DNA of 64,000 nt from a virus. Its lineage: Duplodnaviria > Caudoviricetes. Position 1 is the stretch's first letter. Each line of letters begins with the position of its first letter. Of the stretch, positions 5,539-55,030 are shown piece after piece. The position numbers were made by a program, and so were the translations under genes. Below the pieces are notes generated by a model, which saw only the letters and a program-made list of their open reading frames with translations, did not search any database and was not told the DNA's origin. The stretch lies in the IMG/VR virus record IMGVR_UViG_3300027983_002389; one strand, given 5' to 3'.

Positions 5539-6546
5539 TTGAACGATTTGCGTATTTTCGGCCTTGGGTCAAGTGTTGAATACACGGATCAGGTGTGCAA
5601 AGCGTTGTCGCTGAAGCGATCTGACCACAAAGAAACTTGGCAAGACGACGATGAGCCGTATGTTCTCTCACAAGAGAACGTCCGAGGCTGTGACGTATTC
5701 ATCGTGCAGAGTTTGTATTCTTGCCAAAAGGAACGTCTGGCAGATAAGTTCCTGAAGCTCCTGTTGTTCGCTCGTTCTCTTCGTGACGCATCGGCACGAC
5801 GCATCACGTTGGTATTGCCGTATCTTGCTTTCCAAAGGCAAGATCGAAAAACTGAGTCCAGAGCGCCAGTGTATACCAAATACATTCCTGAAATTATCGA
5901 AGGACTACTTCGTCCCGACGACCGAATTTTGACTATCGACGCCCACAATCTGAGCGCCTATCAATCAGGCTTTCGCCTGATGCTCGATCACTTGGAAGCC
6001 AAGCCGGTCGTCTGCGACTGGTTCAGTAATTCTGCCAGTCGATTGTGGCCTGAACTCAATTTGGACAATTTGTGTTTTGCATCACCCGACGAAGGTGGCG
6101 TGAAGCGGGTTGGGTTTTATCGAAAACGTGTTCAATCTCAAATGAAGATCGAGATCAGCACGGCATCGATTTACAAAACCCATGAAGGAAAAGAAATTGA
6201 GGCTCATGGTGTGATGGGTCACGTCGAGGGTAAAGACGTGTTTTTGATTGACGATATGATCTCGTCTGGAACCACTTTGGTAAAAGCAACCGACGCCATT
6301 GAGAAGGAAGGCGGGAAGGTTCGAGCCGCCATTGCTACTCACGGTTTGTTCGTCGGTAATGCCAATGAGCGTATAGGGTTACTGCAAGAACGTGGCATCA
6401 AAGTTATCGTCACCGATACAGTTCACACCAATAAATTAGACCCGAAATTGCAGAAGAAATTGGTGGTTATTCGGACAGCGCCATTGCTTGGTGAAGCTAT
6501 TCGGTGTATCCACAATGAAGAATCTGTCAGTAAGTTGCTTTCCTGA
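5539..6546 (+). CDS. prs: Ribose-phosphate pyrophosphokinase (PRPP synthetase family)
   Basis: ENVRGCDVFIVQS, PYLAFQRQDRK, SPDEGG, IDDMISSGTT, ATHGLF; TTG start after AGGAG. Confidence 0.92.
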   Translation: MNDLRIFGLGSSVEYTDQVCKALSLKRSDHKETWQDDDEPYVLSQENVRGCDVFIVQSLYSCQKERLADKFLKLLLFARSLRDASARRITLVLPYLAFQRQDRKTESRAPVYTKYIPEIIEGLLRPDDRILTIDAHNLSAYQSGFRLMLDHLEAKPVVCDWFSNSASRLWPELNLDNLCFASPDEGGVKRVGFYRKRVQSQMKIEISTASIYKTHEGKEIEAHGVMGHVEGKDVFLIDDMISSGTTLVKATDAIEKEGGKVRAAIATHGLFVGNANERIGLLQERGIKVIVTDTVHTNKLDPKLQKKLVVIRTAPLLGEAIRCIHNEESVSKLLS

Positions 6547-6596
6547 AAATATGGTTGTCAAGACCATTTCCCCAAGTATAATCCACGGAGGTTCCA

Positions 6597-7190
6597 GTGG
6601 CTCTCAAGAGTTGTCCTGTCTGTCAGAAACAAGTCGGACCCAGGACAAAAAAATGTGATTGTGGTCATGAATTTGCAACAACCATAGCAGCGGTTCCGGC
6701 CAGTGGTCAGTCAATGGTGCTTGATCCTTTGGACAAGCGCATTGCTGCATCTGTGGATTCCGTCCGTGACATTATTTCGAGAGTTGAAAATCGCCCTGCC
6801 TCAGCGGGTCCAGTTTCAACCCCTGTCATCTGTGATATTGATGATGTAGATCAATCGCCTCGACGCACGACTATTATACGTCCTCAAACTCAAAGATTTT
6901 TTGGTGGTGGTGAAAGAGTCTCCACCCCAGCGGGTGAATGTCCTGTTAAACCTAAAGGCTACAAAGACAAATGGCCTGATGGACCAGCCTCAGATGAGGT
7001 TGTTCAGGATTGGGCTGTGGACGTATACAATCATGGACAAGGTAGATACGCCATTGATGCGGTCATCTACTTCGCTCGTTATTTTTGGGACATTAACGGA
7101 CAAGAATATCCTCGGATTCGTGATCGGATCGTGAAAACCTTGCAGCCTTCACGTCCATCCGATCACGAATCCGAGAATGATATTACTTAG
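6597..7190 (+). CDS. Hypothetical protein with N-terminal zinc ribbon
   Basis: CPVC...CDCGHEF; GGAGG RBS; TTGTCA-N16-TATAAT upstream. Confidence 0.7.
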   Translation: MALKSCPVCQKQVGPRTKKCDCGHEFATTIAAVPASGQSMVLDPLDKRIAASVDSVRDIISRVENRPASAGPVSTPVICDIDDVDQSPRRTTIIRPQTQRFFGGGERVSTPAGECPVKPKGYKDKWPDGPASDEVVQDWAVDVYNHGQGRYAIDAVIYFARYFWDINGQEYPRIRDRIVKTLQPSRPSDHESENDIT

Positions 7191-7411
7191 GCGCTCTCAG
7201 CGGACAACTGTTCGATGGGAGATCGAATAGTTTCTACTTCAATACCTTCAGTTGTCAGTTCAGATCGCAATACTGTGATTTTCTTATCAGCTTCGATGCC
7301 GATGCGGACCTTATTGCGGTTATCAATACGGACGACAGTAATCCTAATGTCTTCCATATTTGGACCCTTGAGAATGATTGTCTCATCTATCTTACGACTT
7401 AGTACGAGCAT
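7187..7411 (-). CDS. csrA: Second CsrA-family protein
   Basis: MLVLSRKIDETI...KVRIGIEA...VLRSEL. Confidence 0.85.
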   Translation of the reverse strand: MLVLSRKIDETIILKGPNMEDIRITVVRIDNRNKVRIGIEADKKITVLRSELTTEGIEVETIRSPIEQLSAESA

Positions 7412-16830: not shown

Positions 16831-17883
16831 ATGAAACCTGATCCTCGGTACACGTTGAATCCGTTCAATCATGAGCCAAGAATTCAACTTATTGATGGCG
16901 ACGGTAGCCTGATTCAAATGATTAGCCAGATTGAGGCTTTTCATTTGTTGCGGCATGGCTTTTGTGAATTATTGATGATTAAACCTCCCACCTTGCAGTT
17001 CCAGTTGGATCGCAAGCATTGGGATGTTCGCTTTATGCGATTGAAACCACCCCGTTGGTTTCGAGATAGTGGTCAATATCTTGAGGCTCGAAAGAGCGTC
17101 ATGTATGGCAACTTTCACATTCAGTCGCCTGACGGCAATGATATGTTCCATTGTAATTCACAAAAGGCATTGTGGTATTTGAATCGAGACATTGCCGATA
17201 TTGTGTGCAGCAATCCCCCTACGTTGAAATTGAAGTTTGTTCCTGGAGGCTTAGGTCACGTTGGCGACACCTATTATCTTACTGAGAAATTGAATAGGTG
17301 TGTGGTTTGTGCCAGTGAGCGAAACTTAAATCGCCATCATGTTATGCCTCGTGTGTTCCGGCGTCACTTGCCAGAATCCATTAAGGACCACAATTATCAT
17401 GATGTATTGCTCATGTGCATTGATTGTCACGAACAATACGAACAAGAGGCGGATAAATTCAAGCAGGAAATCTGTAGGGAATTAGATTTCGACATCAACA
17501 ATGGCGCTGGTCAAATCTATTTGCCTGAGATTGGCAATGCTGTGAAAGCCGCTCGTGCGTTGTTCCACTACGAAAATGTAATTCCAGAGCCTCGTAAATC
17601 TCTATTGCTCAATACGCTCAGAGAGTATTTGAAAAAAGAAGAAGTAACTCGCCAAGACTTGGAAGAAGTGTCCTCGCATTTTTCTTGGCATCGACCTGAT
17701 GGCTACCAGAACTACGGAGAGTTCGTAATTAGCAAGATTGGCGACATTCAAGAATTCACAGAGCGATGGCGGCAACACTTTATTGACGTGATGAAGCCGA
17801 AATACTTGCCAGCGTATTGGGATGTGCAAAAGCCTTTGATTCGTGATCGTGTGAGAAATAAAATACAGGTCGAACCAAAATGA
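16831..17883 (+). CDS. HNH-like nuclease resembling the C-terminal domain of eukaryotic EXD2
   Basis: SPDG..C..KALWYL, EKLNRCVVC, RHHVMP..FRRHLP..KDHNYHDVLLMCIDCH, RWRQHF...PKYLP. Confidence 0.75.
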   Translation: MKPDPRYTLNPFNHEPRIQLIDGDGSLIQMISQIEAFHLLRHGFCELLMIKPPTLQFQLDRKHWDVRFMRLKPPRWFRDSGQYLEARKSVMYGNFHIQSPDGNDMFHCNSQKALWYLNRDIADIVCSNPPTLKLKFVPGGLGHVGDTYYLTEKLNRCVVCASERNLNRHHVMPRVFRRHLPESIKDHNYHDVLLMCIDCHEQYEQEADKFKQEICRELDFDINNGAGQIYLPEIGNAVKAARALFHYENVIPEPRKSLLLNTLREYLKKEEVTRQDLEEVSSHFSWHRPDGYQNYGEFVISKIGDIQEFTERWRQHFIDVMKPKYLPAYWDVQKPLIRDRVRNKIQVEPK

Positions 17884-29918: not shown

Positions 29919-30906
29919 TAAAGTTCGGGGTAATTTCTTGGGTGTCGCTATTGGCGATGCTTTAGGCAAGCCCGTCGAAATGTGCAAGCCTGCATATATC
30001 GCCGATAAATATGGTCGAATCACAGATTACTTGGACTGCTCCAGTCACAAGTATTTTGAGAACGACCACAAAGGCACTACAACCGATGACTGGCAGCTTA
30101 CCAAGGCCGTCGCTCGTGCCATGATTACGACTGGCAAGTTCGATCTGGACGAAATTGCCGTTGAGCATGGCAAGGAATTCGCCATTAGCGTTCGTGGTTG
30201 GGGCGGATCGACGAGAGAGGCCGTGGCTCGTATTGTTGAAGGAATTCACTGGAAGGAAGCTGGCAAGACCACCGAGAAGAATCGTGGCCTGGGCAATGGC
30301 GTTTCCATGAAGGCATCACCAGCAGGGCTTTATATGGCTCTGACAAATCCCAATTGTGATAATCCTCCTTGGGATGAGCATGTTAAAAATATCGTTGATA
30401 TGGCGATCATGACGCACTACACCAGTATTGCTGTGACCAGTGGGTTGGCTCACGCATTTGCCACGTTGAAATGTTTTTGCTCCACTCCTGAAACCTTTGA
30501 TCCTAAAGCCTTTGTGAATATCATTATTGGCGCTTCTCAGTTGGGACGACAGCATTGTCCTGGCACTCTCAATGACGATATGCAGAATCGTTTTGAGCGT
30601 TTGAAGAAGCCATATTCTCCTCAGAGTATTATAGACCCTGAAGAGTTTGGTGGCGGCTCTTGCTATGTTTATGACAGTTTGCCGTTTACATACGCATGGT
30701 TCCTTCGTGATCCTCAAAGCATTGAGAGTCTATACGACTGTGTAAGCGCCGGTGGCGATGCCGATAGCAACGGGTCGATGCTTGCCGGGCTGTTGGGTGC
30801 ATTGCACGGAGCCAGTATTTTTCCTCAGCATTTGGTCGATGGATTGAAGAACAAAGACGAAGTTCTGGAAATCGCCGACCAGTTCTATGCCAAATTCACC
30901 AAATAG
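29896..30906 (+). CDS. ADP-ribosylglycohydrolase (DraG/ARH family)
   Basis: GDALG.PVE, TTDD, GNG..M, TH, GGDADSNGSM.AGLLGA.HG. Confidence 0.92.
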   Translation: MSKITLHDKVRGNFLGVAIGDALGKPVEMCKPAYIADKYGRITDYLDCSSHKYFENDHKGTTTDDWQLTKAVARAMITTGKFDLDEIAVEHGKEFAISVRGWGGSTREAVARIVEGIHWKEAGKTTEKNRGLGNGVSMKASPAGLYMALTNPNCDNPPWDEHVKNIVDMAIMTHYTSIAVTSGLAHAFATLKCFCSTPETFDPKAFVNIIIGASQLGRQHCPGTLNDDMQNRFERLKKPYSPQSIIDPEEFGGGSCYVYDSLPFTYAWFLRDPQSIESLYDCVSAGGDADSNGSMLAGLLGALHGASIFPQHLVDGLKNKDEVLEIADQFYAKFTK

Positions 30907-34505: not shown

Positions 34506-35138
34506 ATGATTCAGCATTTGCGACTTTCCGGTGATCTCAAATTTGGACAGTACAAGGGAATATCTTGTGCTGTCCACCTTCAAGTTGACATTCACGAAGA
34601 CGATGAGTGGGCCGAGCCGGACCCCAACTACAATCCAGCCAACTACATCGATGGCGTTCGTGTCACTGGCGAGTTTTATTTTGACACTTCACCACTTGGT
34701 TGGAACGATAAGCATCCGGTTGAACCCAACGCCATTGGTGAATTGTTTGTTCGTGATGGCGAGGAAAGTTCCAAGTTGAATATCCTTGTCACAGAGAAGT
34801 CTGGTGAGTCTGATCTTATTCCAAAGAAACTGAAACGCTATTTTTGGCAGTTCTTCGTTGTCGGTAAGCCCTCTTGGGATAAACTCAAGATATTTCCAGA
34901 GAACTACCGAGGCGCAAACATGAACCGTCTATATGCTTGCACCGACTTTCGAGGTTATTGGCCGGTTGGAGTCGCTTCTGTTATTGTTGCCACCGATAAA
35001 CGTGAGGCTAGACGATTGCTCAATCAGAAACTCGAAGAGGCAGGCATCCCAATTGAAAGTGGCGTCGATTTCAATTTGACTGAAATCAATCTTCAAGATA
35101 AAGGCGCTGTTATCCTCAATAATGGCGACTGGAAATAG
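34506..35138 (+). CDS. Hypothetical protein (possibly two genes fused at ATG 34920)
   Basis: C-terminal MNRLYACTDFRGYWPVGVASVIVA reads like a stand-alone small protein. Confidence 0.65.
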   Translation: MIQHLRLSGDLKFGQYKGISCAVHLQVDIHEDDEWAEPDPNYNPANYIDGVRVTGEFYFDTSPLGWNDKHPVEPNAIGELFVRDGEESSKLNILVTEKSGESDLIPKKLKRYFWQFFVVGKPSWDKLKIFPENYRGANMNRLYACTDFRGYWPVGVASVIVATDKREARRLLNQKLEEAGIPIESGVDFNLTEINLQDKGAVILNNGDWK

Positions 35139-35241
35139 CATGGACCCAAAGGTGCGACCGGCATTTTACGTCATTGTTTTCTTTCTGCCAAGCACAATAA
35201 TACATGGACCACAATAATACACCCGTTCTTTAATCTAAGGA

Positions 35242-35307
35242 ATTCCCAATGAGTAGAGCGGCGAACTCTAAATTTGCTGGTTGTGGGTTCGATTCCCATC
35301 GGGAACG
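35242..35307 (+). pseudogene. Degenerate tRNA with CTA anticodon
   Basis: GCGAA-CTCTAAA-TTTGC and GTGGG-TTCGATT-CCCAT arms intact; 5' D-stem strand missing and acceptor mismatched. Confidence 0.7.
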
Positions 35308-35312
35308 CTTTA

Positions 35313-35383
35313 GCTCCGTTGGTATAGAGGTTGTGCCGGGAACTCTAAATTCCCAGAGGCAGGTTCAAGTCCTGTACGGAGCA
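35313..35383 (+). tRNA. Amber suppressor tRNA (anticodon CUA), no encoded CCA
   Basis: GCTCCGT/ACGGAGC-A acceptor, GTAT/GTGC D stem, GGGAA-CTCTAAA-TTCCC, 4-nt variable loop, GCAGG-TTCAAGT-CCTGT. Confidence 0.88.
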
Positions 35384-35401
35384 TTTTTTCAAGGTGATGA
35401 C

Positions 35402-35773
35402 ATGCAAGTAAATGTAAACGGCAAATCGTTCAATGTTCGTGATGGTGCCAATATCAGCATTACCAATAACGTCTTGTACGTTGATGGTCAAGAATATGTT
35501 GGCGATGGCTACGATTCCAAAGAATTCAAAATCGAGATAACTGGTGGCGTTGCCAATGTCAAAGTCGAGCGTGGAAGCGTAGTTGTTCACGGTGACGCAG
35601 GACCAGTCAATGCTGGTGGTAATGTCACCTGTGGCAACATATTTGGTGGGATTGATGCTGGTGGTAATGTCACCTGTGGCAATGTTGCTAATACAATTGA
35701 TGCTGGTGGCAATATTACCTGTGGCTCGGTCGGTGGCAATGTTGTCGCCGGTGGCAATGTTCATCACCAGTAG
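35402..35773 (+). CDS. Gly-rich beta-helical repeat protein
   Basis: Repeats of AGGNVTCGN; start is ATG 35402, downstream of the tRNAs. Confidence 0.75.
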   Translation: MQVNVNGKSFNVRDGANISITNNVLYVDGQEYVGDGYDSKEFKIEITGGVANVKVERGSVVVHGDAGPVNAGGNVTCGNIFGGIDAGGNVTCGNVANTIDAGGNITCGSVGGNVVAGGNVHHQ

Positions 35774-35784
35774 GAGATTTTCAA

Positions 35785-36117
35785 ATGAGAAACGGAAACG
35801 GGTTCACGCTGATCGAGTTGTTGGTTGTGCTTTGCATAATCGCAGTCCTTGTTTCTCTTGTCATTGGTGCAGTCGGCGGTATCACCGGCAGAACCTTTGA
35901 AGCCGAGGTTACTGACAAGTGGACCGATCTTGATCTTGATGACAACAGGATTTACCGAATTCGGACTGTCTCGCCCCAAGGCGATATTGACACTTGGAAT
36001 TCATATTGGTGTCACGACGACATTCATCAAGGCGTATCGTATCAATTCCAGGCTACTGGCAGTGTGATTCGCAAATCCAACAGACTGGCTTTGCAGCCAG
36101 TGAAAATTCAAAATTAA
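35785..36117 (+). CDS. Prepilin-type N-terminal cleavage/methylation protein
   Basis: MRNGNG-FTLIELLVVLCIIAVLVSL. Confidence 0.85.
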   Translation: MRNGNGFTLIELLVVLCIIAVLVSLVIGAVGGITGRTFEAEVTDKWTDLDLDDNRIYRIRTVSPQGDIDTWNSYWCHDDIHQGVSYQFQATGSVIRKSNRLALQPVKIQN

Positions 36118-36126
36118 GGGTTCACA

Positions 36127-36399
36127 ATGGTTCCAGTTGATGGAGTGGACGGCACGCCTGACCTAAAGATCGACGCTCTTTATGCCTATCTTGCTCAAGG
36201 CAAAGAGGGCGAAGGCGTTATGGGAATGTCTGTTCCCATCAATGGTCAAATGATGATGCTGCCTATGGTTGGAGCAGACATTGATCGGATTAAATCCCTT
36301 CTGCCCCTCGCTACGCAAATTGCTCAGGCAAGCGGAATCACATTTAGAATCTATCGTTTCGACAACAAGGTGGATATCACCGAGGAAATCGAACTCTAA
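36127..36399 (+). CDS. Hypothetical protein
   Basis: Operon-packed ORF. Confidence 0.65.
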   Translation: MVPVDGVDGTPDLKIDALYAYLAQGKEGEGVMGMSVPINGQMMMLPMVGADIDRIKSLLPLATQIAQASGITFRIYRFDNKVDITEEIEL

Positions 36400-36404
36400 A
36401 ATGG

Positions 36405-36433
36405 TTTACAAAAACCTAGTTTCGTGGTAGATT
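36405..36433 (+). promoter_or_regulatory. Sigma-70-type promoter
   Basis: TTTACA-N17-TAGATT. Confidence 0.75.
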
Positions 36434-36449
36434 ACATAGGGAGTACACC

Positions 36450-37196
36450 ATGTACAAGCATAAGCTGTTGATTGCCAATCCGATGATTAACGACCCTGTA
36501 TTTGCAGGGAGCGTTGTGTTTATTTTTGAACACACCAAAAAGGGCGCACAAGGCGTCATTCTCAACTCCAGAGAAGTTGGGAAAGTTGGTTTTGGGCATA
36601 TGAAAGATGTGTTCAATGCGCCACCCGGCAACTTCAATGAAGCCAAAGACATGATCCTCAATGGCAAGTTGCAATCTGTCCCGCTCTATTTAGGTGGACC
36701 GTGCCAGACGCCGGGCGTATTTTTCCTTCATGGATATGAGGAACTTCTCAACATTCACGAAGGACAAGAACAGGGGTCGGAATACGACCTGGGAATTCCA
36801 GCCAGCTTTAATCTTTACGATGAAGATGAACAGCCCGCCTACAAAGATGATATTCCCAGCCCATTCGCCAAGTTGACCGTAACCGAAGGGTTGTATTTTG
36901 GCTCGCCATACACCTTCGGTCACTTGGTTGAAAACGGCAAATTGGACGAAGACAAGTTCAGGTTTTTTACTGGATTATCCGCATGGAGTGCAGGCCAGTT
37001 GGAATATGAAATCCAAAGTGGAGCTTGGACTGTTGCTGAATCGACTCCTGAATTGTTCTTCAATGTCGAAGAGTTGAATAAACTTGCACAATCAGTCGGC
37101 AGTAAACGGCATGAGCCTGAACCTGCGTCAAACCCAAAACCAAAACATCCTTGGCTTCCCGAAACGAAACAAGGGTTCGACCCGTCTTGGAACTAA
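36450..37196 (+). CDS. YqgE/AlgH (DUF179) family protein
   Basis: LLIANP..DPVFAGSVV..EH...GAQGVILN, GGP, RFFTG.SAW..GQLE.EI..GAW. Confidence 0.88.
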   Translation: MYKHKLLIANPMINDPVFAGSVVFIFEHTKKGAQGVILNSREVGKVGFGHMKDVFNAPPGNFNEAKDMILNGKLQSVPLYLGGPCQTPGVFFLHGYEELLNIHEGQEQGSEYDLGIPASFNLYDEDEQPAYKDDIPSPFAKLTVTEGLYFGSPYTFGHLVENGKLDEDKFRFFTGLSAWSAGQLEYEIQSGAWTVAESTPELFFNVEELNKLAQSVGSKRHEPEPASNPKPKHPWLPETKQGFDPSWN

Positions 37197-37199
37197 AAC

Positions 37200-37943
37200 A
37201 TGGCCAACCATAGCGAGATCGTAGAAAAATTCAGTACACGTCAACCAAACAAGCGGCATCAAGGCCAAGTTGTTTGGCGTGGCAGTCGTGTGTATTGCTC
37301 AGCCGATCTGATCTTCAGCTATGGTAGTCATTTCCCAATGGCGAAGCATCTTGGAGAACGAGACAACAAACCGTTCTTCATTAGAAATGATGATAAGTAC
37401 AGCAGTTCAACTAGCGCTCATCAAAGCAAAGTGAGACAACATTGTCCCGGCCCTGATGTGTCACGACGTAAGCTGTCAAAGCACATTCATTTTGAAGACC
37501 TGGAAATGGTGCATATTCACTTATGGCGTCCTGGTTTGTTCAAGCATATGTGGCAGGATACTCAGACTGGTTTGTTCTACGATGATGCTGATTATCGTAG
37601 ACTTGAGCCAAATGATCCCGATCCTACTGATCCGTTTAAGTCGCTCGATCAAGAGGCTGACGTGAGTGATTTCAGCAGGGCATTCAGAGTAGTGAACCTT
37701 CAGCGTCGAGTGTATGTTTTTGTCAAGCCATGTAAACTGTCACGTTTTGGCTCGTTCAAAGCGTATAAGAGGAGCAACGAGCGATTTCAGCAGGGCATTT
37801 ATTCTGTGGAGCAGATACTTGTTTTGAAGATCAAGGACAAGTATCTTTTGTCCACAAACGGCAATATAGTTGAGCTTGTTGGAGAGCCAAAAACAATTGC
37901 TCAATCGATGAAGATGAAACATAAAGTAGTAGTAGTAACCTAA
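37200..37943 (+). CDS. Hypothetical phage protein
   Basis: FSYGSHFP...YSSSTSAHQS pattern. Confidence 0.7.
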   Translation: MANHSEIVEKFSTRQPNKRHQGQVVWRGSRVYCSADLIFSYGSHFPMAKHLGERDNKPFFIRNDDKYSSSTSAHQSKVRQHCPGPDVSRRKLSKHIHFEDLEMVHIHLWRPGLFKHMWQDTQTGLFYDDADYRRLEPNDPDPTDPFKSLDQEADVSDFSRAFRVVNLQRRVYVFVKPCKLSRFGSFKAYKRSNERFQQGIYSVEQILVLKIKDKYLLSTNGNIVELVGEPKTIAQSMKMKHKVVVVT

Positions 37944-37955
37944 CTGGAGAAATAA

Positions 37956-38264
37956 ATGCAATCAGTAACGTCTCAGACATTCGATCAAGAAGTCACACAG
38001 TCCGCAGTGCCAGTCATTGTGGACTTTTGGGCTACATGGTGCGGTCCTTGCCGTACTTTGAAGCCTGTGTTGGAATCCATGAACGGTGAAGCCAATGGTC
38101 AATTCAAGGTCGTCACCGTTGACGTTGACGCTGAGGCTGATCTTGCGTCGAAATATGGAATCAGCCATATCCCAACCCTCTTGATTTTCAAGAATGGCGA
38201 AGTATCCGAACGCATTGTTGGCATGAAGTCTAAGAAAGATTTACTGGAAGCGGTGGCACGATGA
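37956..38264 (+). CDS. trxA: Thioredoxin
   Basis: VDFWATWCGPC, IPTL. Confidence 0.95.
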   Translation: MQSVTSQTFDQEVTQSAVPVIVDFWATWCGPCRTLKPVLESMNGEANGQFKVVTVDVDAEADLASKYGISHIPTLLIFKNGEVSERIVGMKSKKDLLEAVAR

Positions 38265-38626
38265 ACTGGCACGGGCAAATACTAACGACTTATCTGGACC
38301 TGTTGCGAGAAGTCGCTAGGGTTGGCTCGCCAGAAGAGGCGCATGAGTTTCTATCTGCATACCGGCAGGTAAACCCTCATGCTGATTCAAACATCGGTTG
38401 GATGATTGGCGACGTGGATCGGGACGTGGGCAGACGAATCATTGAATGGTTCGGCTGTTCACATCCTGTATTTGGCACGACGTTCCCGACAGTCGAGGAG
38501 GCTCTACGGAAGGGCATGGAAATGGGAGAAGCAATGAAAAATGGCGGCATTGACGCCGTTCATAGGATTCTTCCACGATACAACCCTAACCCTTGGTTTC
38601 TCGGCGCACTCGATGACCAGGAGTGA
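38261..38626 (+). CDS. Hypothetical protein ending NPWFLGALDD
   Basis: ATGA-coupled ORF. Confidence 0.7.
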   Translation: MNWHGQILTTYLDLLREVARVGSPEEAHEFLSAYRQVNPHADSNIGWMIGDVDRDVGRRIIEWFGCSHPVFGTTFPTVEEALRKGMEMGEAMKNGGIDAVHRILPRYNPNPWFLGALDDQE

Positions 38627-39075
38627 TCGTGTATTTTTCGTACTCATTATTTCGTCACAATCCAACGACCGATCAATGGATTGAACTTGCGGAAGTTGAA
38701 TCATTGCAAGAAATGATTCGACTTATCGAAAGTTACTTTGACATTATTGAGCCTGTATCGGCGAATTGGTTGCCGAGAGACTATGAAACTGCATTCAAAG
38801 ATGAAAACGGGCATGTTTATGCCATTTATCGGATGGATGAGCGATATAGTCGGCATGGTTATGATGATTACGAATCGGAATGTCAGTACAATGACTACTA
38901 CGACGACATTGACAGGCAAACCGATAGTTATTACGCTCAACAACGACGAGGAGTGGAGAAGTGGGAATATGTTTTCAACAATCCAGAATTGTTGATGAAG
39001 AGATATTTCCCACAACCGGAGTTGAGCATTGCGAGCCGCCAAAATGAATGGTATGTTGGTGCGTTGCATGATTGA
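38623..39075 (+). CDS. Hypothetical protein ending NEWYVGALHD
   Basis: GTGA-coupled ORF. Confidence 0.65.
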   Translation: MIVYFSYSLFRHNPTTDQWIELAEVESLQEMIRLIESYFDIIEPVSANWLPRDYETAFKDENGHVYAIYRMDERYSRHGYDDYESECQYNDYYDDIDRQTDSYYAQQRRGVEKWEYVFNNPELLMKRYFPQPELSIASRQNEWYVGALHD

Positions 39076-39295
39076 ATTTGACGTTAAAAACGATCAGTTG
39101 TACGCTTGCTACAACGATGGTTCTTTTCCTGCATTCTTTGCACACGTTTCTTTGCCTATTGTTCTAACGGCGTTTCCAGATTCAAATAACGAATGGTTCA
39201 TCGGGGCATTGAGGGATAATCATGAAGATTCGACATCATCAGGACAGACAACAGGATGGTCTAGTAGTCCTAGAATCAGAGCCACAACTCCGTAG
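39068..39295 (+). CDS. Hypothetical protein containing NEWFIGALRD
   Basis: Overlap-coupled ORF. Confidence 0.55.
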   Translation: MIEFDVKNDQLYACYNDGSFPAFFAHVSLPIVLTAFPDSNNEWFIGALRDNHEDSTSSGQTTGWSSSPRIRATTP

Positions 39296-39902
39296 CATCT
39301 TCGTGTATAGCCAGACCCGCAACAATATACGGGTTCCATTGCCGTACATTCTTTTCACAATTCGATATGTAAAACTATCTTCAGGGAAGTTTACATATCC
39401 TGGCATTTATGGATCAGGACTCCACGTCTATGGAAACTTAAAGCCGTTGTCTGATTTTTCAGACAAAGTGGTTTATCTTCCAACTGATTATGCCAACTAT
39501 AAGGGCTTGGTTTGCACCGATCACGGATCAGACAACAAAAAGTTTGACTCGGTGCCACAATTGGTCAACTATGTGGTGACACATTGGTGGAGTCATATGC
39601 ACTATATTGACTATCAACCATTCGGAGCCACGGCTTGGCATGAAGCAAAATTAACCGATATTCCAAATGGCAAGTGGGAAAAAGCGGGAAATTTTCGTCA
39701 AGCTCTTTTGTTGGGTAAGTGTTACGGAGTATCTGAGCAGCGATTCATTCCCGATGAAGCCAAAGTTTTGGACCTGCAATGGCCCGCTACGCTTGAAATC
39801 AAGCCGTTTGAAGGCGTGGAACATTCCGTTAACTACCTGAGTTCGTGGCCTGTCCCAATCGGGTGTCAGTGTGGAGATTGTCGTGCTGCCAGAGGCGAAT
39901 AA
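39222..39902 (+). CDS. Hypothetical protein, weakly like prokaryotic E2 family D
   Basis: VPLPYILF...LHVY...PL...LP...GLVC. Confidence 0.55.
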   Translation: MKIRHHQDRQQDGLVVLESEPQLRSIFVYSQTRNNIRVPLPYILFTIRYVKLSSGKFTYPGIYGSGLHVYGNLKPLSDFSDKVVYLPTDYANYKGLVCTDHGSDNKKFDSVPQLVNYVVTHWWSHMHYIDYQPFGATAWHEAKLTDIPNGKWEKAGNFRQALLLGKCYGVSEQRFIPDEAKVLDLQWPATLEIKPFEGVEHSVNYLSSWPVPIGCQCGDCRAARGE

Positions 39903-39917
39903 AATTTCGCAACCAGC

Positions 39918-39946
39918 TTTACAAAGCCGAAAACCGATGGTAGAAT
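39918..39946 (+). promoter_or_regulatory. Sigma-70-type promoter of the Pth2-like gene
   Basis: TTTACA-N17-TAGAAT. Confidence 0.8.
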
Positions 39947-40001
39947 GATTGCAGTAAAGAATAGATAACTCGAATTAACCCTCAAATTTTGGAGATTGAC
40001 C

Positions 40002-40460
40002 ATGACTCTTTAGGTATCAGCCCCGACCCGTAAAAGCCACGTTTACATTTTTGTACGTCGTGACCTACCGCCTGCACAGATTGTTGTGCAGGCTTCGCAC
40101 GCTGCTTTTGAAGCAGCCTCTCTTCATACCCCTGAACTCGACCACCCGCACATCGTCTTACTTGGTTTTCGTGACCAAAGAGAACTTGAGCGTGCGCTTC
40201 GGAGAGTTCAATCTTCGGGGTTTCAGGTCTGCCCATTTTTCGAGGCCGACCGTGGTGACGAACTTACTGCTTTCGCCACCCAGCCCATTTCTAAATCTCA
40301 GCGTTCGTTTTTTCGCAGATATAACTGCTTGAGCGACGATTTGCTGTTCTCTGGATTCACAAAGGGCAAATCAAAAAATATATCCTCAGCCGAAGGTCCG
40401 TCCATTGTGGACGCTGATCCCGGAGAGGGTGCGAAACAATTACAGGAAGCATATACATGA
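40002..40460 (+). CDS. Peptidyl-tRNA hydrolase 2-like protein with in-frame TAG at codon 4
   Basis: GGAG RBS, then MTL*VSAPTRKSHVYIFVRRDLPPAQIVVQASHAA...IVLLG...EL...FFEAD...LTAFATQP. Confidence 0.8.
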
Positions 40461-40672
40461 CAGAACCATATAGGCATATTCACGTCTCTACATTTGAGGC
40501 ATTCTTCAAGAGTGAAGACTGGCGAAGGAATTGGATCGCCACCAATCGTCCAGAGAAAGAATTAGAGGTTCATGATAAACGAATGTCCGTGACGAAAAGA
40601 GAAAGAAATTCAGGGAACGATTTCCGTTCACGGCAATTCTCCAAGGGGCATATCCAGAACACGATTTTGTGA
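40457..40672 (+). CDS. Hypothetical protein
   Basis: ATGA-coupled ORF, AGGA RBS. Confidence 0.5.
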   Translation: MTEPYRHIHVSTFEAFFKSEDWRRNWIATNRPEKELEVHDKRMSVTKRERNSGNDFRSRQFSKGHIQNTIL

Positions 40673-40705
40673 GTCGTTGGTGTTGGCAGTCGTTGGTGTT
40701 GGCAG
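40672..40705. repeat. 16-bp tandem duplication at a stop codon
   Basis: AGTCGTTGGTGTTGGC x2 followed by AG. Confidence 0.9.
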
Positions 40706-40717
40706 AACATTGGTCCG

Positions 40718-41512
40718 ATGCAATGTGAAGAGTGCCATGAATCGTCATCGGAATATCCCGGTTGTCCACTGGTACTAGCAACCGAGTATATCCAAACAGG
40801 CTGGTATTTAACCAATACTGGCAAGCGGGTGTATTGGTCCAATAAGGCTTACATCGAAGAGAAGGTGCCAAAACACAGCCACGAGGGAACGTGGATTGCT
40901 TTCTGGTTAGGGAAGACCGGATACGACTATGGTTTAAGTGAGTATTACTTTCAGAATGAATCAGATCGGGATAGGTTTCTCGCCGCAACCCCGATCTTTA
41001 CCCTTGGCGAGAAGTACGAAAAGGAAAATGATATGACGACAATGACCGCAGAAAAGGCCGTTCACCAAAGCAAATGGGGACACCACCCCATCAGCCGTGA
41101 GGCGAGCCAGAAGCTCCGTTTCATCAATGGAGTTTATGCAAAGGCCCAGCACTTGGCTGGTGCTTGGGAGCGTTGGGAACGTAAATTGCCTGAGAACCGT
41201 GTGGTGAGAAGGGCAGTGAAGGACGACAAAGGAATGAAGATCGGCACAGAGATCGTCAAGGATGCCGCTGGCAATCCTGTGGCGTGGCTTGAACCGGGAA
41301 TCTGCCCTTTGTTCCACGAGAAGGTTCCTGGCCACATTAAGTATGGTAGCTATGTCCGTGGCGTTGCCAAGGATAATGGCTTCGGCGACAAGATTCTCTT
41401 TGCCTCTCGTCAGGCACGGACTCCTCAGCCGACCCCGGAAGAAGTTCTGTCCTTCCCCTTCACTGAGGAAGAGATTGACCGTCTTTATGAGACGGTCAAG
41501 GCTTGGGAATAG
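40718..41512 (+). CDS. Hypothetical protein (probable in-frame fusion; internal RBS and ATG at 41033)
   Basis: AAGGA-N7-ATG inside the ORF. Confidence 0.65.
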   Translation: MQCEECHESSSEYPGCPLVLATEYIQTGWYLTNTGKRVYWSNKAYIEEKVPKHSHEGTWIAFWLGKTGYDYGLSEYYFQNESDRDRFLAATPIFTLGEKYEKENDMTTMTAEKAVHQSKWGHHPISREASQKLRFINGVYAKAQHLAGAWERWERKLPENRVVRRAVKDDKGMKIGTEIVKDAAGNPVAWLEPGICPLFHEKVPGHIKYGSYVRGVAKDNGFGDKILFASRQARTPQPTPEEVLSFPFTEEEIDRLYETVKAWE

Positions 41513-41609
41513 TTGAATTTGGCGCTGGACGCCAATACCGAATTGCAGATTAACTTTCACAGGTTTATCGGCAAGATTGGAAGTCAAACAGTCAGATATA
41601 TCTGATTGT

Positions 41610-41649
41610 AAAGCCCACTGGTCGATATAACCAGTGGGCTTTTTTGTTT
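41610..41649 (+). terminator. Rho-independent terminator
   Basis: AAAGCCCACTGGT/ACCAGTGGGCTTTTTT. Confidence 0.85.
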
Positions 41650-41716
41650 ATCTGACTTGATCGACCCCGATATTTTGGAGATATTGCCTATATCCAGCCC
41701 ATATCGGAGGTTTATC

Positions 41717-54118: not shown

Positions 54119-54466
54119 ATGATTAAGCCAATCACTCCACGAGAGGTCATCGGCAAAAAGACAGAATTGATCCCTGATGCAGTTCTGCTGGCATTCAATG
54201 AAACAATTGCTCGCACCTATCACAACGGAGTTGCGACCTTTACTCAGGACGAAATTATTCTTCTGATTATCCAAAAGTTTGAGCAAGAAGTCAATAAGGG
54301 ATTGGGTGCTGAAGACTGGATTAAACAGTCTCGACAACAGGTTTTTGATAATCATTGGTTGGACGTTGAAGGCATTTATCGCAAAGCAGGCTGGATTGTC
54401 GAATATGACAAACCGGCATACAACGAGTCATATCCAGCCACTTTTACTTTTCGGGGCAAGCTATGA
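54119..54466 (+). CDS. Hypothetical phage protein
   Basis: WLDVE..YR..GW.VEYDKPAYNESY. Confidence 0.75.
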   Translation: MIKPITPREVIGKKTELIPDAVLLAFNETIARTYHNGVATFTQDEIILLIIQKFEQEVNKGLGAEDWIKQSRQQVFDNHWLDVEGIYRKAGWIVEYDKPAYNESYPATFTFRGKL

Positions 54467-54981
54467 CTGATTTCAGAACCATCCCAACTCGCATTATTGT
54501 CAATGGCGAAGAGAAAACCATTGACGCTGCTCCAAGGTTCACCTGCATTGTGCATCAGCAGGGCATTAGGGTCAATCTTCCTGATTTCGTGGAGATCAAT
54601 AGTCGCAACACTATTGACTGCATGGAGAAGATGAGCCAACGAGCCTGGGTGCATATTAGCGAAGGGAAATTGTTCCAGATTCTTTTCCGGGAATTCTTCC
54701 CTGAAGAAGATGGCAACGTGCCGATCCCAGGAACTATTGAACAACTAAATGCAGGAGACTTGGGAGTTGTTCATGCTGCTGGGATGATTGTGCTGGCTTG
54801 TGAGGCGATATTTGAAGGCAAGACTAGAATCTTCTTTCGTAACCCGGAAAATAACCTTCATCCAAAGGCTGAACGTCGCATTCACGGCATGTTCATGAAA
54901 ATGAGAGACTTGTTGGCTCCTGATGAAGAAGGTGGAGTGGCAACCGCCGTCGCACCAGAGCCAGAGCCTACAGAGGAATAG
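54463..54981 (+). CDS. Hypothetical protein; may extend to 55026 by amber read-through
   Basis: FFRNPENNLHP; ends PEPTEE*KPKQPRKPRKKKDT*. Confidence 0.7.
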   Translation: MTDFRTIPTRIIVNGEEKTIDAAPRFTCIVHQQGIRVNLPDFVEINSRNTIDCMEKMSQRAWVHISEGKLFQILFREFFPEEDGNVPIPGTIEQLNAGDLGVVHAAGMIVLACEAIFEGKTRIFFRNPENNLHPKAERRIHGMFMKMRDLLAPDEEGGVATAVAPEPEPTEE

Positions 54982-55030
54982 AAGCCTAAGCAGCCTCGCA
55001 AGCCTCGTAAAAAGAAGGATACATAGTGTT

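Follow-up and report, generated by a model that had tools for sequence, protein, structure and literature searches.

In the 64,000-nt stretch of phage DNA that we analysed (hereafter, the window), a gene encoding a protein with a predicted peptidyl-tRNA hydrolase 2 (Pth2) fold carries an in-frame amber stop, TAG, as its fourth codon, and this arrangement probably constitutes a translational gate that is opened by the phage's own amber-suppressor tRNA. Our reading builds on sequence comparison: the conservation of the gate, the match between its stop codon and the anticodon of the neighbouring suppressor, the linkage of gene and tRNA, the base context 3' of the stop, the coding constraint behind it and the lack of any other start. 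In the proposed mechanism the gene would be transcribed from a sigma-70-like promoter (39918–39946) and ribosomes would initiate at ATG 40002 behind a GGAG sequence; at codon 4 (UAG), release factor 1 and the phage tRNA-CUA (35313–35383) would then be in competition. Termination at UAG would yield fMet-Thr-Leu only, decoding of UAG would yield the whole 152-aa Pth2-fold protein, and the amount of enzyme would roughly follow the activity of the suppressor tRNA, with none made when that tRNA is inactive. The expression and charging of tRNA-CUA, as well as the amino acid that it would insert, are presumed parts of this reading.

The elements of the gene lie on the plus strand, and the promoter, GGAG, ATG, TAG, open frame and tRNA-CUA were all recovered at the coordinates given by the initial annotation. 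The putative promoter consists of TTTACA (39918–39923) and TAGAAT (39941–39946), separated by a 17-nt spacer with a TG; it is the top sigma-70-like match within 34900–41700 (10/12, TG present) and is near-invariant in the relatives L001, L003 and L007–L009. Direct reading places a Shine-Dalgarno GGAG, which is retained in relatives, at 39991–39994, 7 nt 5' of the ATG (40002–40004). The three-codon leader ATG ACT CTT and the gate codon TAG (40011–40013) together occupy 40002–40013, and are followed by the Pth2-fold ORF (VSAPTRKSHVYIFVRRDLPPAQIVVQASHAA...; 40014–40460), which ends with the stop TGA at 40458–40460. With the gate TAG read as a residue, the product is 152 aa long (P0001). The 12-mer AATTAACCCTCA (39974–39985), which we take to be reminiscent of a T3 promoter, shows no conservation in relatives and was dropped as a T3-like promoter.

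The initial annotation had held that the full enzyme can only be made by read-through, and the distribution of start codons bears this out. The first canonical start 3' of the gate is GTG 40086–40088, which lies behind the first conserved strand (strand 1), and there is no in-frame ATG, GTG or TTG between TAG 40011–40013 and this GTG. As the conserved family domain begins at residues 11–14 (HVYIF...), upstream of GTG 40086, a start at the GTG would mean the loss of strand 1 and of the R-x-D-L motif. Early nonsense codons in bacteria can permit restarts, and one could picture a gene without read-through in which the mini-ORF is finished and translation re-initiates just downstream at a non-canonical or weak start, with the leader serving as a coupling device. 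While a GTG or TTG is indeed found 1–5 codons before the conserved Arg in L018, L029, L032, L053 and L054, in most loci, including the window, the interval from the stop to strand 1 is free of ATG, GTG and TTG, and the codon that follows the stop shows no conservation as a near-cognate start. Furthermore, re-initiation would not require that the type of the stop equal the anticodon of the neighbouring suppressor (see below), and we regard it as distinctly unlikely. Gene callers start at GTG 40086, yielding a 124-aa product (P0002), and elsewhere in public protein collections the same gene is found shortened to the downstream GTG.

As judged from all sequences at hand, the gate TAG is neither a sequencing error nor a recent mutation. 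The codon is confirmed by three JGI samples, across which it is identical (L010–L012), and by an independent estuary run, in which a contig spanning 40006–40520 has 0 differences, TAG included; the contigs of runs X6 and X8 lie outside the gate. It is kept in L001–L013, L020–L022 and L170–L172 and in distant relatives, with codon 3 being CTT, CTC or CAC; relatives at 75–90% identity preserve ATG ACT C(T/A)C TAG GTA, with the neighbouring codons variable. A sense codon at this position, which the initial annotation had raised for close homologues, was found in none of the close relatives whose DNA was read: the DNA has TAG. Between the gate and GTG 40086 (19 codons), the ratios of synonymous to non-synonymous codon changes are 8:0, 5:1 and 6:0 relative to the three closest lineages, and, by this measure, the sequence behind the gate TAG is under purifying coding selection.

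Several records bear on how the gate appears in databases and elsewhere. Gln at the gate in the homologues P0003 and P0027 was rejected as a candidate sense codon, as these contigs had been called with TAG=Q and the DNA carries TAG; database proteins beginning MTHQ, MLQ or MGFTQ probably conceal the gate as a false Gln as well (TAG=Q, short contigs). A contig from a glacier metagenome (run X7) ends in ...ATGACT followed by TAGGTATC, at window 40005–40010; these 8 letters at the contig end suggest a variant without the CTT codon in which TAG is still in frame. A blastn search of the region against GenBank phages yielded no match, and a profile search of genome contigs with alignment A1 yielded no relative.

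We then consider the gate across the family. IMG/VR scans with three sub-alignments, together with metagenome loci, produced 167 loci, of which 99 are unique; these are mostly from IMG/VR, with the metagenome scan contributing only 8. In 66 of the 99 unique loci the gene has the same layout: a start codon, 0–7 codons, a stop, 8–15 codons (rarely more) and strand 1, with no ATG, GTG or TTG at least 6 codons before the conserved Arg. Clustering of these gated loci gives 51 clusters at 70% identity and 13 at 50%, and, on the strength of this comparison, the sharing of an early in-frame stop is far beyond chance. The conservation of the stop that the initial annotation had proposed for homologues is thus observed, as is its co-occurrence with suppressor tRNAs (49/66, see below). 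The gate is codon 3 (ATG-NNN-stop) in 32 of the 66 loci and ranges from codon 2 to codon 9. The leader peptides are unrelated (MT, ML, MGFT, MNDP, MKPDT and others), which argues for selection acting on a stop just after the start, rather than on a particular peptide or DNA motif. The base 3' of the gate TAGs is A in 26 cases, G in 33, C in 3 and T in 0; for the ordinary TAGs that end ORFs in these loci, the following base is a purine in 59% (Fisher 8.6e-10 for the comparison with gate TAGs). A 3' purine favours amber suppression.

The same evidence speaks to the view that the gene is dead or merely bears a tolerated nonsense mutation, or that a DNA motif has produced the TAG incidentally. In the window lineage the neighbouring gene is disrupted, and the sequence ACTCTTTAGG at the gate resembles, with one mismatch, the 3' half of a repeated element, GGTCGAACCAAA-N10-CTCTCTAGG. 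A dead gene, however, would not show purifying selection downstream of the stop, and neither a dead gene nor a motif sits well with a stop that is conserved over 51 clusters with unrelated leaders and without the motif. The upstream half of the element is absent at the gate, and about 1.7 such 10-mers are expected in the window by chance. We therefore judged the resemblance of the gate to a copy of this class II motif to be due to chance, or at most lineage-specific, and find the whole explanation hardly credible.

The repeated element is itself probably a phage-specific promoter, as its placement would indicate. Eleven exact copies of GGTCGAACCAAA are present on the plus strand (at 17868, 18976, 22146, 30906, 30954, 46785, 47227, 48555, 49763, 50926 and 51644), each followed by 10 nt and then (A/G/C)CTCTCT(A/T)(G)G; every copy is intergenic and in the coding-strand orientation, and those at 30906 and 30954 lie in a 48-nt tandem repeat. 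The GAAC-N16-TCTA spacing of the element is, we presume, reminiscent of ECF-sigma promoters.

Gated genes are also found in cultured phages. The gene of Acinetobacter phage vB_AbaM_ME3 (KU935715.1), located near 166.6–166.95 kb with ME3_tRNA4, opens with ATG ACT TAG and lies 450 nt downstream of a tRNA-CUA; that of Cronobacter phage GAP32 opens with ATG GCA CAA TAG, and a Sup-tRNA follows 3.1 kb downstream. The gene of Klebsiella phage RaK2, in contrast, lacks a gate, and no suppressor lies within 3 kb of it. Two further variations were seen among the loci. In L013, L014, L023, L025 and L170 a second in-frame TAG is located at the border between the Pth2 domain and the tail (..GF[TLG] TAG GKS..), followed by a conserved tail of about 30 aa (GKS...EGPS..DADPGEG); this position is AAG in the window (40362–40364) and a true Gln codon in L007. 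Suppression at the second TAG would give rise to short and long forms of the protein in these five loci. In L114 (~6440–7300) the gate (MSFT-TAG) is separated from the Pth2-like domain by an extra domain of about 180 aa; with initiation at the upstream ATG, the gate would still be codon 5, at the N-terminal end of the entire protein.

The type of the stop follows the anticodon of the tRNA next to it. Among the 66 gated loci, 62 have TAG, 3 have TGA and 1 has TAA, and a matching suppressor tRNA is found within 7.5 kb in 49 of the 66 (CUA in 45, UCA in 3, UUA in 1); no gated locus has only a non-matching suppressor. The TGA gates beside tRNA-UCA are those of L057, L085 and L112, and the TAA gate beside tRNA-UUA is that of L074; L039 and L060 are TGA cases with a possible internal start, located 80–96 nt from a tRNA-UCA. 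The initial annotation had named activity of tRNA-CUA as one way past the gate, and this co-variation of stop type with suppressor anticodon, with 0 mismatches, supports tRNA-CUA as the likely reader. The matching tRNAs lie at a median distance of 1 kb, 20 of 56 within 500 nt and nearly all on the same strand. In many gated loci the suppressor is the sole tRNA, so the linkage is not a mere consequence of co-location in tRNA arrays. No suppressor tRNA was found in the available sequence of 17 of the 66 gated loci, 9 of which have short flanks; L014 has full flanks. Finally, a suppressor tRNA also adjoins 21 of the 31 loci that have an in-frame start before strand 1, which suggests, at the level of gene neighbourhood, that enzyme and suppressor tRNA are functionally tied beyond the gate.

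In the window, the intact tRNA with anticodon CUA (35313–35383, plus strand; detected by ARAGORN, Rfam tRNA 50.4 bits) sits 4.6 kb upstream of the gated gene. It is 71 nt long, with a 4-nt variable loop, a U13-G22 pair and discriminator A, and CCA is not encoded; its orthologues adjoin the gated gene in L001, L004, L007, L010, L013 and L020. Directly 5' of it lies the remnant of a second, unrelated tRNA-CUA (35244–35310, plus strand; Rfam 22.7 bits, sub-threshold, model positions 10–63), in which the 5' acceptor and D strand are lost or replaced. The remnant aligns to intact tRNA-CUA copies in two relatives (L007:845–918 and L013:1378–1451), which implies that the lineage formerly had two different amber suppressors. 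Typing of the suppressors by the nearest non-suppressor among the 359 unique tRNAs of the loci gave mixed nearest types across all suppressors, with best identities of 0.64–0.78 to non-suppressor tRNAs for the window's two tRNA-CUA types.

The presence of a suppressor tRNA-CUA would also be expected if the phage were partly recoded (code 15) and the gene were just one of many with an in-frame TAG. In favour of this, code-15 gene callers have translated short contigs from relatives with TAG=Q, a new TAG is present in the neighbouring gene of a near-identical strain, and the contig extends to about 460 kb, of which the window represents no more than 64 kb. Against this, TAG terminates 26 of the 96 plus-strand ORFs in the window (~27%), where the coverage by standard-code (code 11) ORFs is 0.89; in the related loci it is 0.86–0.96 in most, and is lower only in the tRNA-rich L015 and L018. 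When all TAGs with coding-like sequence behind them were scanned, no other gene within the 64 kb proved to require TAG read-through: the other candidates have an ordinary start within a few codons, and several lie in the repeated intergenic motif. Moreover, the gate is always at codons 2–9, unlike scattered recoding. Partial recoding is, in our estimation, very unlikely, and we retain the gate in a standard-code phage as the preferred reading.

Standard use of TAG has a consequence for how the suppressor could operate. Back-up stops are not nearer after TAG-ending genes in the window, the median extension being 15.5 codons as compared to 9 codons for the others. Since about a quarter of the genes truly terminate at TAG, with no nearer back-ups, a strong suppressor should be costly, and suppression in the window phage is therefore probably weak, timed or restrained. 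A further amber candidate is the TAG that ends a 172-aa ORF (54463–54981) and is followed by a short open tail (window 54979–55026); the ORF has no Pfam match.

The initial annotation had identified the product as Pth2. The fold assignment stands, while the Pfam score and the missing GK lysine leave membership in Pth2 proper not established. In an AlphaFold model based on 90 family members (pLDDT 87) the core comprises residues 13–116 and strand 1 residues 13–19; on this model strand 1 is part of the folded core. As predicted, the protein has a Pth2 fold: the top 13 PDB matches in Foldseek are all Pth2 or Bit1 (E 3e-5, TM 0.65–0.73 by target), and the family profile matched peptidyl-tRNA hydrolase in the PDB at E 3e-7. 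The match to Pfam PTH2 (PF01981) reaches 16.6 bits (E 0.009), which is under the gathering cut-off of 23. Homology to Pth2 is, from these profile comparisons, likely but distant. An exhaustive search recovered a family of at least 1000 representatives at E ≤0.001, with the domain starting at query residues 11–14 (HVYIFVRRDL).

The fold is shared with the archaeal and eukaryotic Pth2 enzymes (MJ0051, 2zv3; AF2095, 3erj; S. solfataricus, 1xty; human Bit1/PTRH2, 1q7s), and the motif R-x-D-L ... Q-x-x-H-A is likewise common to these and the phage protein, as is an acidic residue at the position of the DAG motif. Throughout the family, Gln30 and His33 are invariant. Unlike Pth2, however, the phage protein lacks the GK insertion, has Glu for Asp and scores below the Pfam threshold, and its gene is stop-codon-gated and linked to a suppressor tRNA. 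Specifically, when aligned with 24bt_A and 2zv3_A, the family shows no two-residue GK insertion, and the lysine column is occupied by Gln or another residue, with Glu81 at the position of the DAG aspartate. The GK-motif lysine and the DAG-motif aspartate were reportedly catalytic in work on S. solfataricus Pth2; as the canonical GK lysine is absent, hydrolase activity is not assured, and we describe the protein as a probable tRNA-ester hydrolase. PTH2 has been reported in jumbo phages, with no mention of suppressors or gates (PMC7824862).

What would such an enzyme do behind a gate? Our preferred guess is that it would hydrolyse a tRNA ester in a manner tied to suppression: it might clear peptidyl-tRNA produced by read-through, or it might trim the charged suppressor tRNA itself. 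We put forward, tentatively and as a possibility that we would not expect to prove correct, a governor model in which the enzyme hydrolyses the aminoacyl or peptidyl ester of the suppressor tRNA; given that the enzyme can be made only through suppression, this would result in negative feedback on read-through. If true, read-through would be held low and safe in phages that still terminate with that stop. The model would also explain the ungated members beside suppressors (21/31) and the lack of extra back-up stops after TAG-ending genes.

A different kind of feedback can be imagined around the leader. The architecture of the lambda bar minigene is AUG AUA UAA, and by analogy, as in the fuller model of the initial annotation, a bar-like minigene could shed short peptidyl-tRNA, with the Pth-like enzyme being made when UAG termination fails, be it through low RF1 or an active suppressor, and the feedback matching recycling to load. 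The commonest form of the gate, ATG-NNN-stop (32/66), is compatible with the bar architecture, and the gated product has a peptidyl-tRNA hydrolase fold. The tRNA alone, however, accounts for the co-variation with the anticodon; the gate position shifts between codons 2 and 9, with no conservation of the leader peptides; and the Pth2 catalytic lysine is absent. We consider minigene feedback unlikely, and prefer a gate that is read by the suppressor tRNA.

The gated gene has a neighbour that would share its transcription unit. The start of the downstream gene (40457–41512, plus strand) overlaps the stop of the Pth2-like gene (ATGA, 40457–40460), and an intrinsic-terminator-like hairpin of 13 pairs followed by a T run, found by a sequence scan at 41610–41642 (plus strand), is probably the end of the unit. 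The downstream gene is one ORF of 350–353 aa in L001 and L007; in the window it is split by TGA 40670–40672, beside a 16-nt tandem duplication (GTCGTTGGTGTTGGCA twice, ~40673–40704), and the segment before the TGA and duplication has diverged. In P0039 and P0055 the C-terminal domain of this downstream protein forms a fusion with the Pth2-like domain, a hint that the two proteins share a function. Neither the downstream gene nor the neighbouring genes matched Pfam or PHROGs. In one strain (L010:11089–11091, window 41174–41176), which has 9 differences in 13 kb, TGG has changed to TAG inside the downstream gene: a fresh amber codon in a phage with an amber suppressor.

The gate has partial parallels in known systems. 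The gene for release factor 2, prfB, has an early in-frame UGA that is bypassed by a +1 frameshift and senses its own product. The gated gene likewise has an early in-frame stop in a translation-related gene, with synthesis depending on its decoding; it differs in that the frame is kept and the sensed factor would be a separate tRNA. The lambda bar minigenes (AUG AUA UAA/UGA) are free-standing and matter only in Pth-deficient hosts. Both bar and the gate leader are Shine-Dalgarno-led ORFs of two to few codons with a link to peptidyl-tRNA hydrolase; the mini-ORF at the gate, by contrast, is in frame with a hydrolase-like gene and has its stop matched to a suppressor tRNA.

Closest to our proposal are the recoded phages (code 15 or code 4), in which a phage tRNA reads an in-frame stop and stop read-through has been proposed to time protein production, with no mention of a hydrolase (bioRxiv 10.1101/2021.08.26.457843; PMC9523058). 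In those phages recoding extends over entire blocks of genes and the stop has mostly lost its use as a terminator, whereas the window is standard-code, with one gene carrying one early stop (at codons 2–9 across the family). The jumbo phage XacN1 is, like the window phage, standard-code with tRNA-CUA; its authors described two tRNA-CUA, considered read-through of 18 terminal TAGs and found no target (PMC5852040). The target that we propose lies at the beginning of a gene rather than at the ends of genes. XacN1 was not among the family matches in GenBank phage records, and full-text literature searches turned up no published description of the pairing of a gated Pth2-like gene with a suppressor tRNA.

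The analysis corrects GenBank annotation, in which ME3_195 and GAP32_397 begin too late and the gene is unannotated in fHe-Yen9, Serratia BF and several Erwinia phage records. The tRNA and gate pair is compact, and would be a ready-made orthogonal switch for synthetic biology. For the phages themselves, an early stop that matches the anticodon of a neighbouring suppressor would provide a concrete natural client for orphan suppressor tRNAs, and the first conserved target for the suppressor tRNAs that many standard-code phages carry, cultured jumbo phages among them. It would represent regulatory use of a stop codon without a reassigned genetic code, and the gated state may be a possible ancestor of fully recoded phages.
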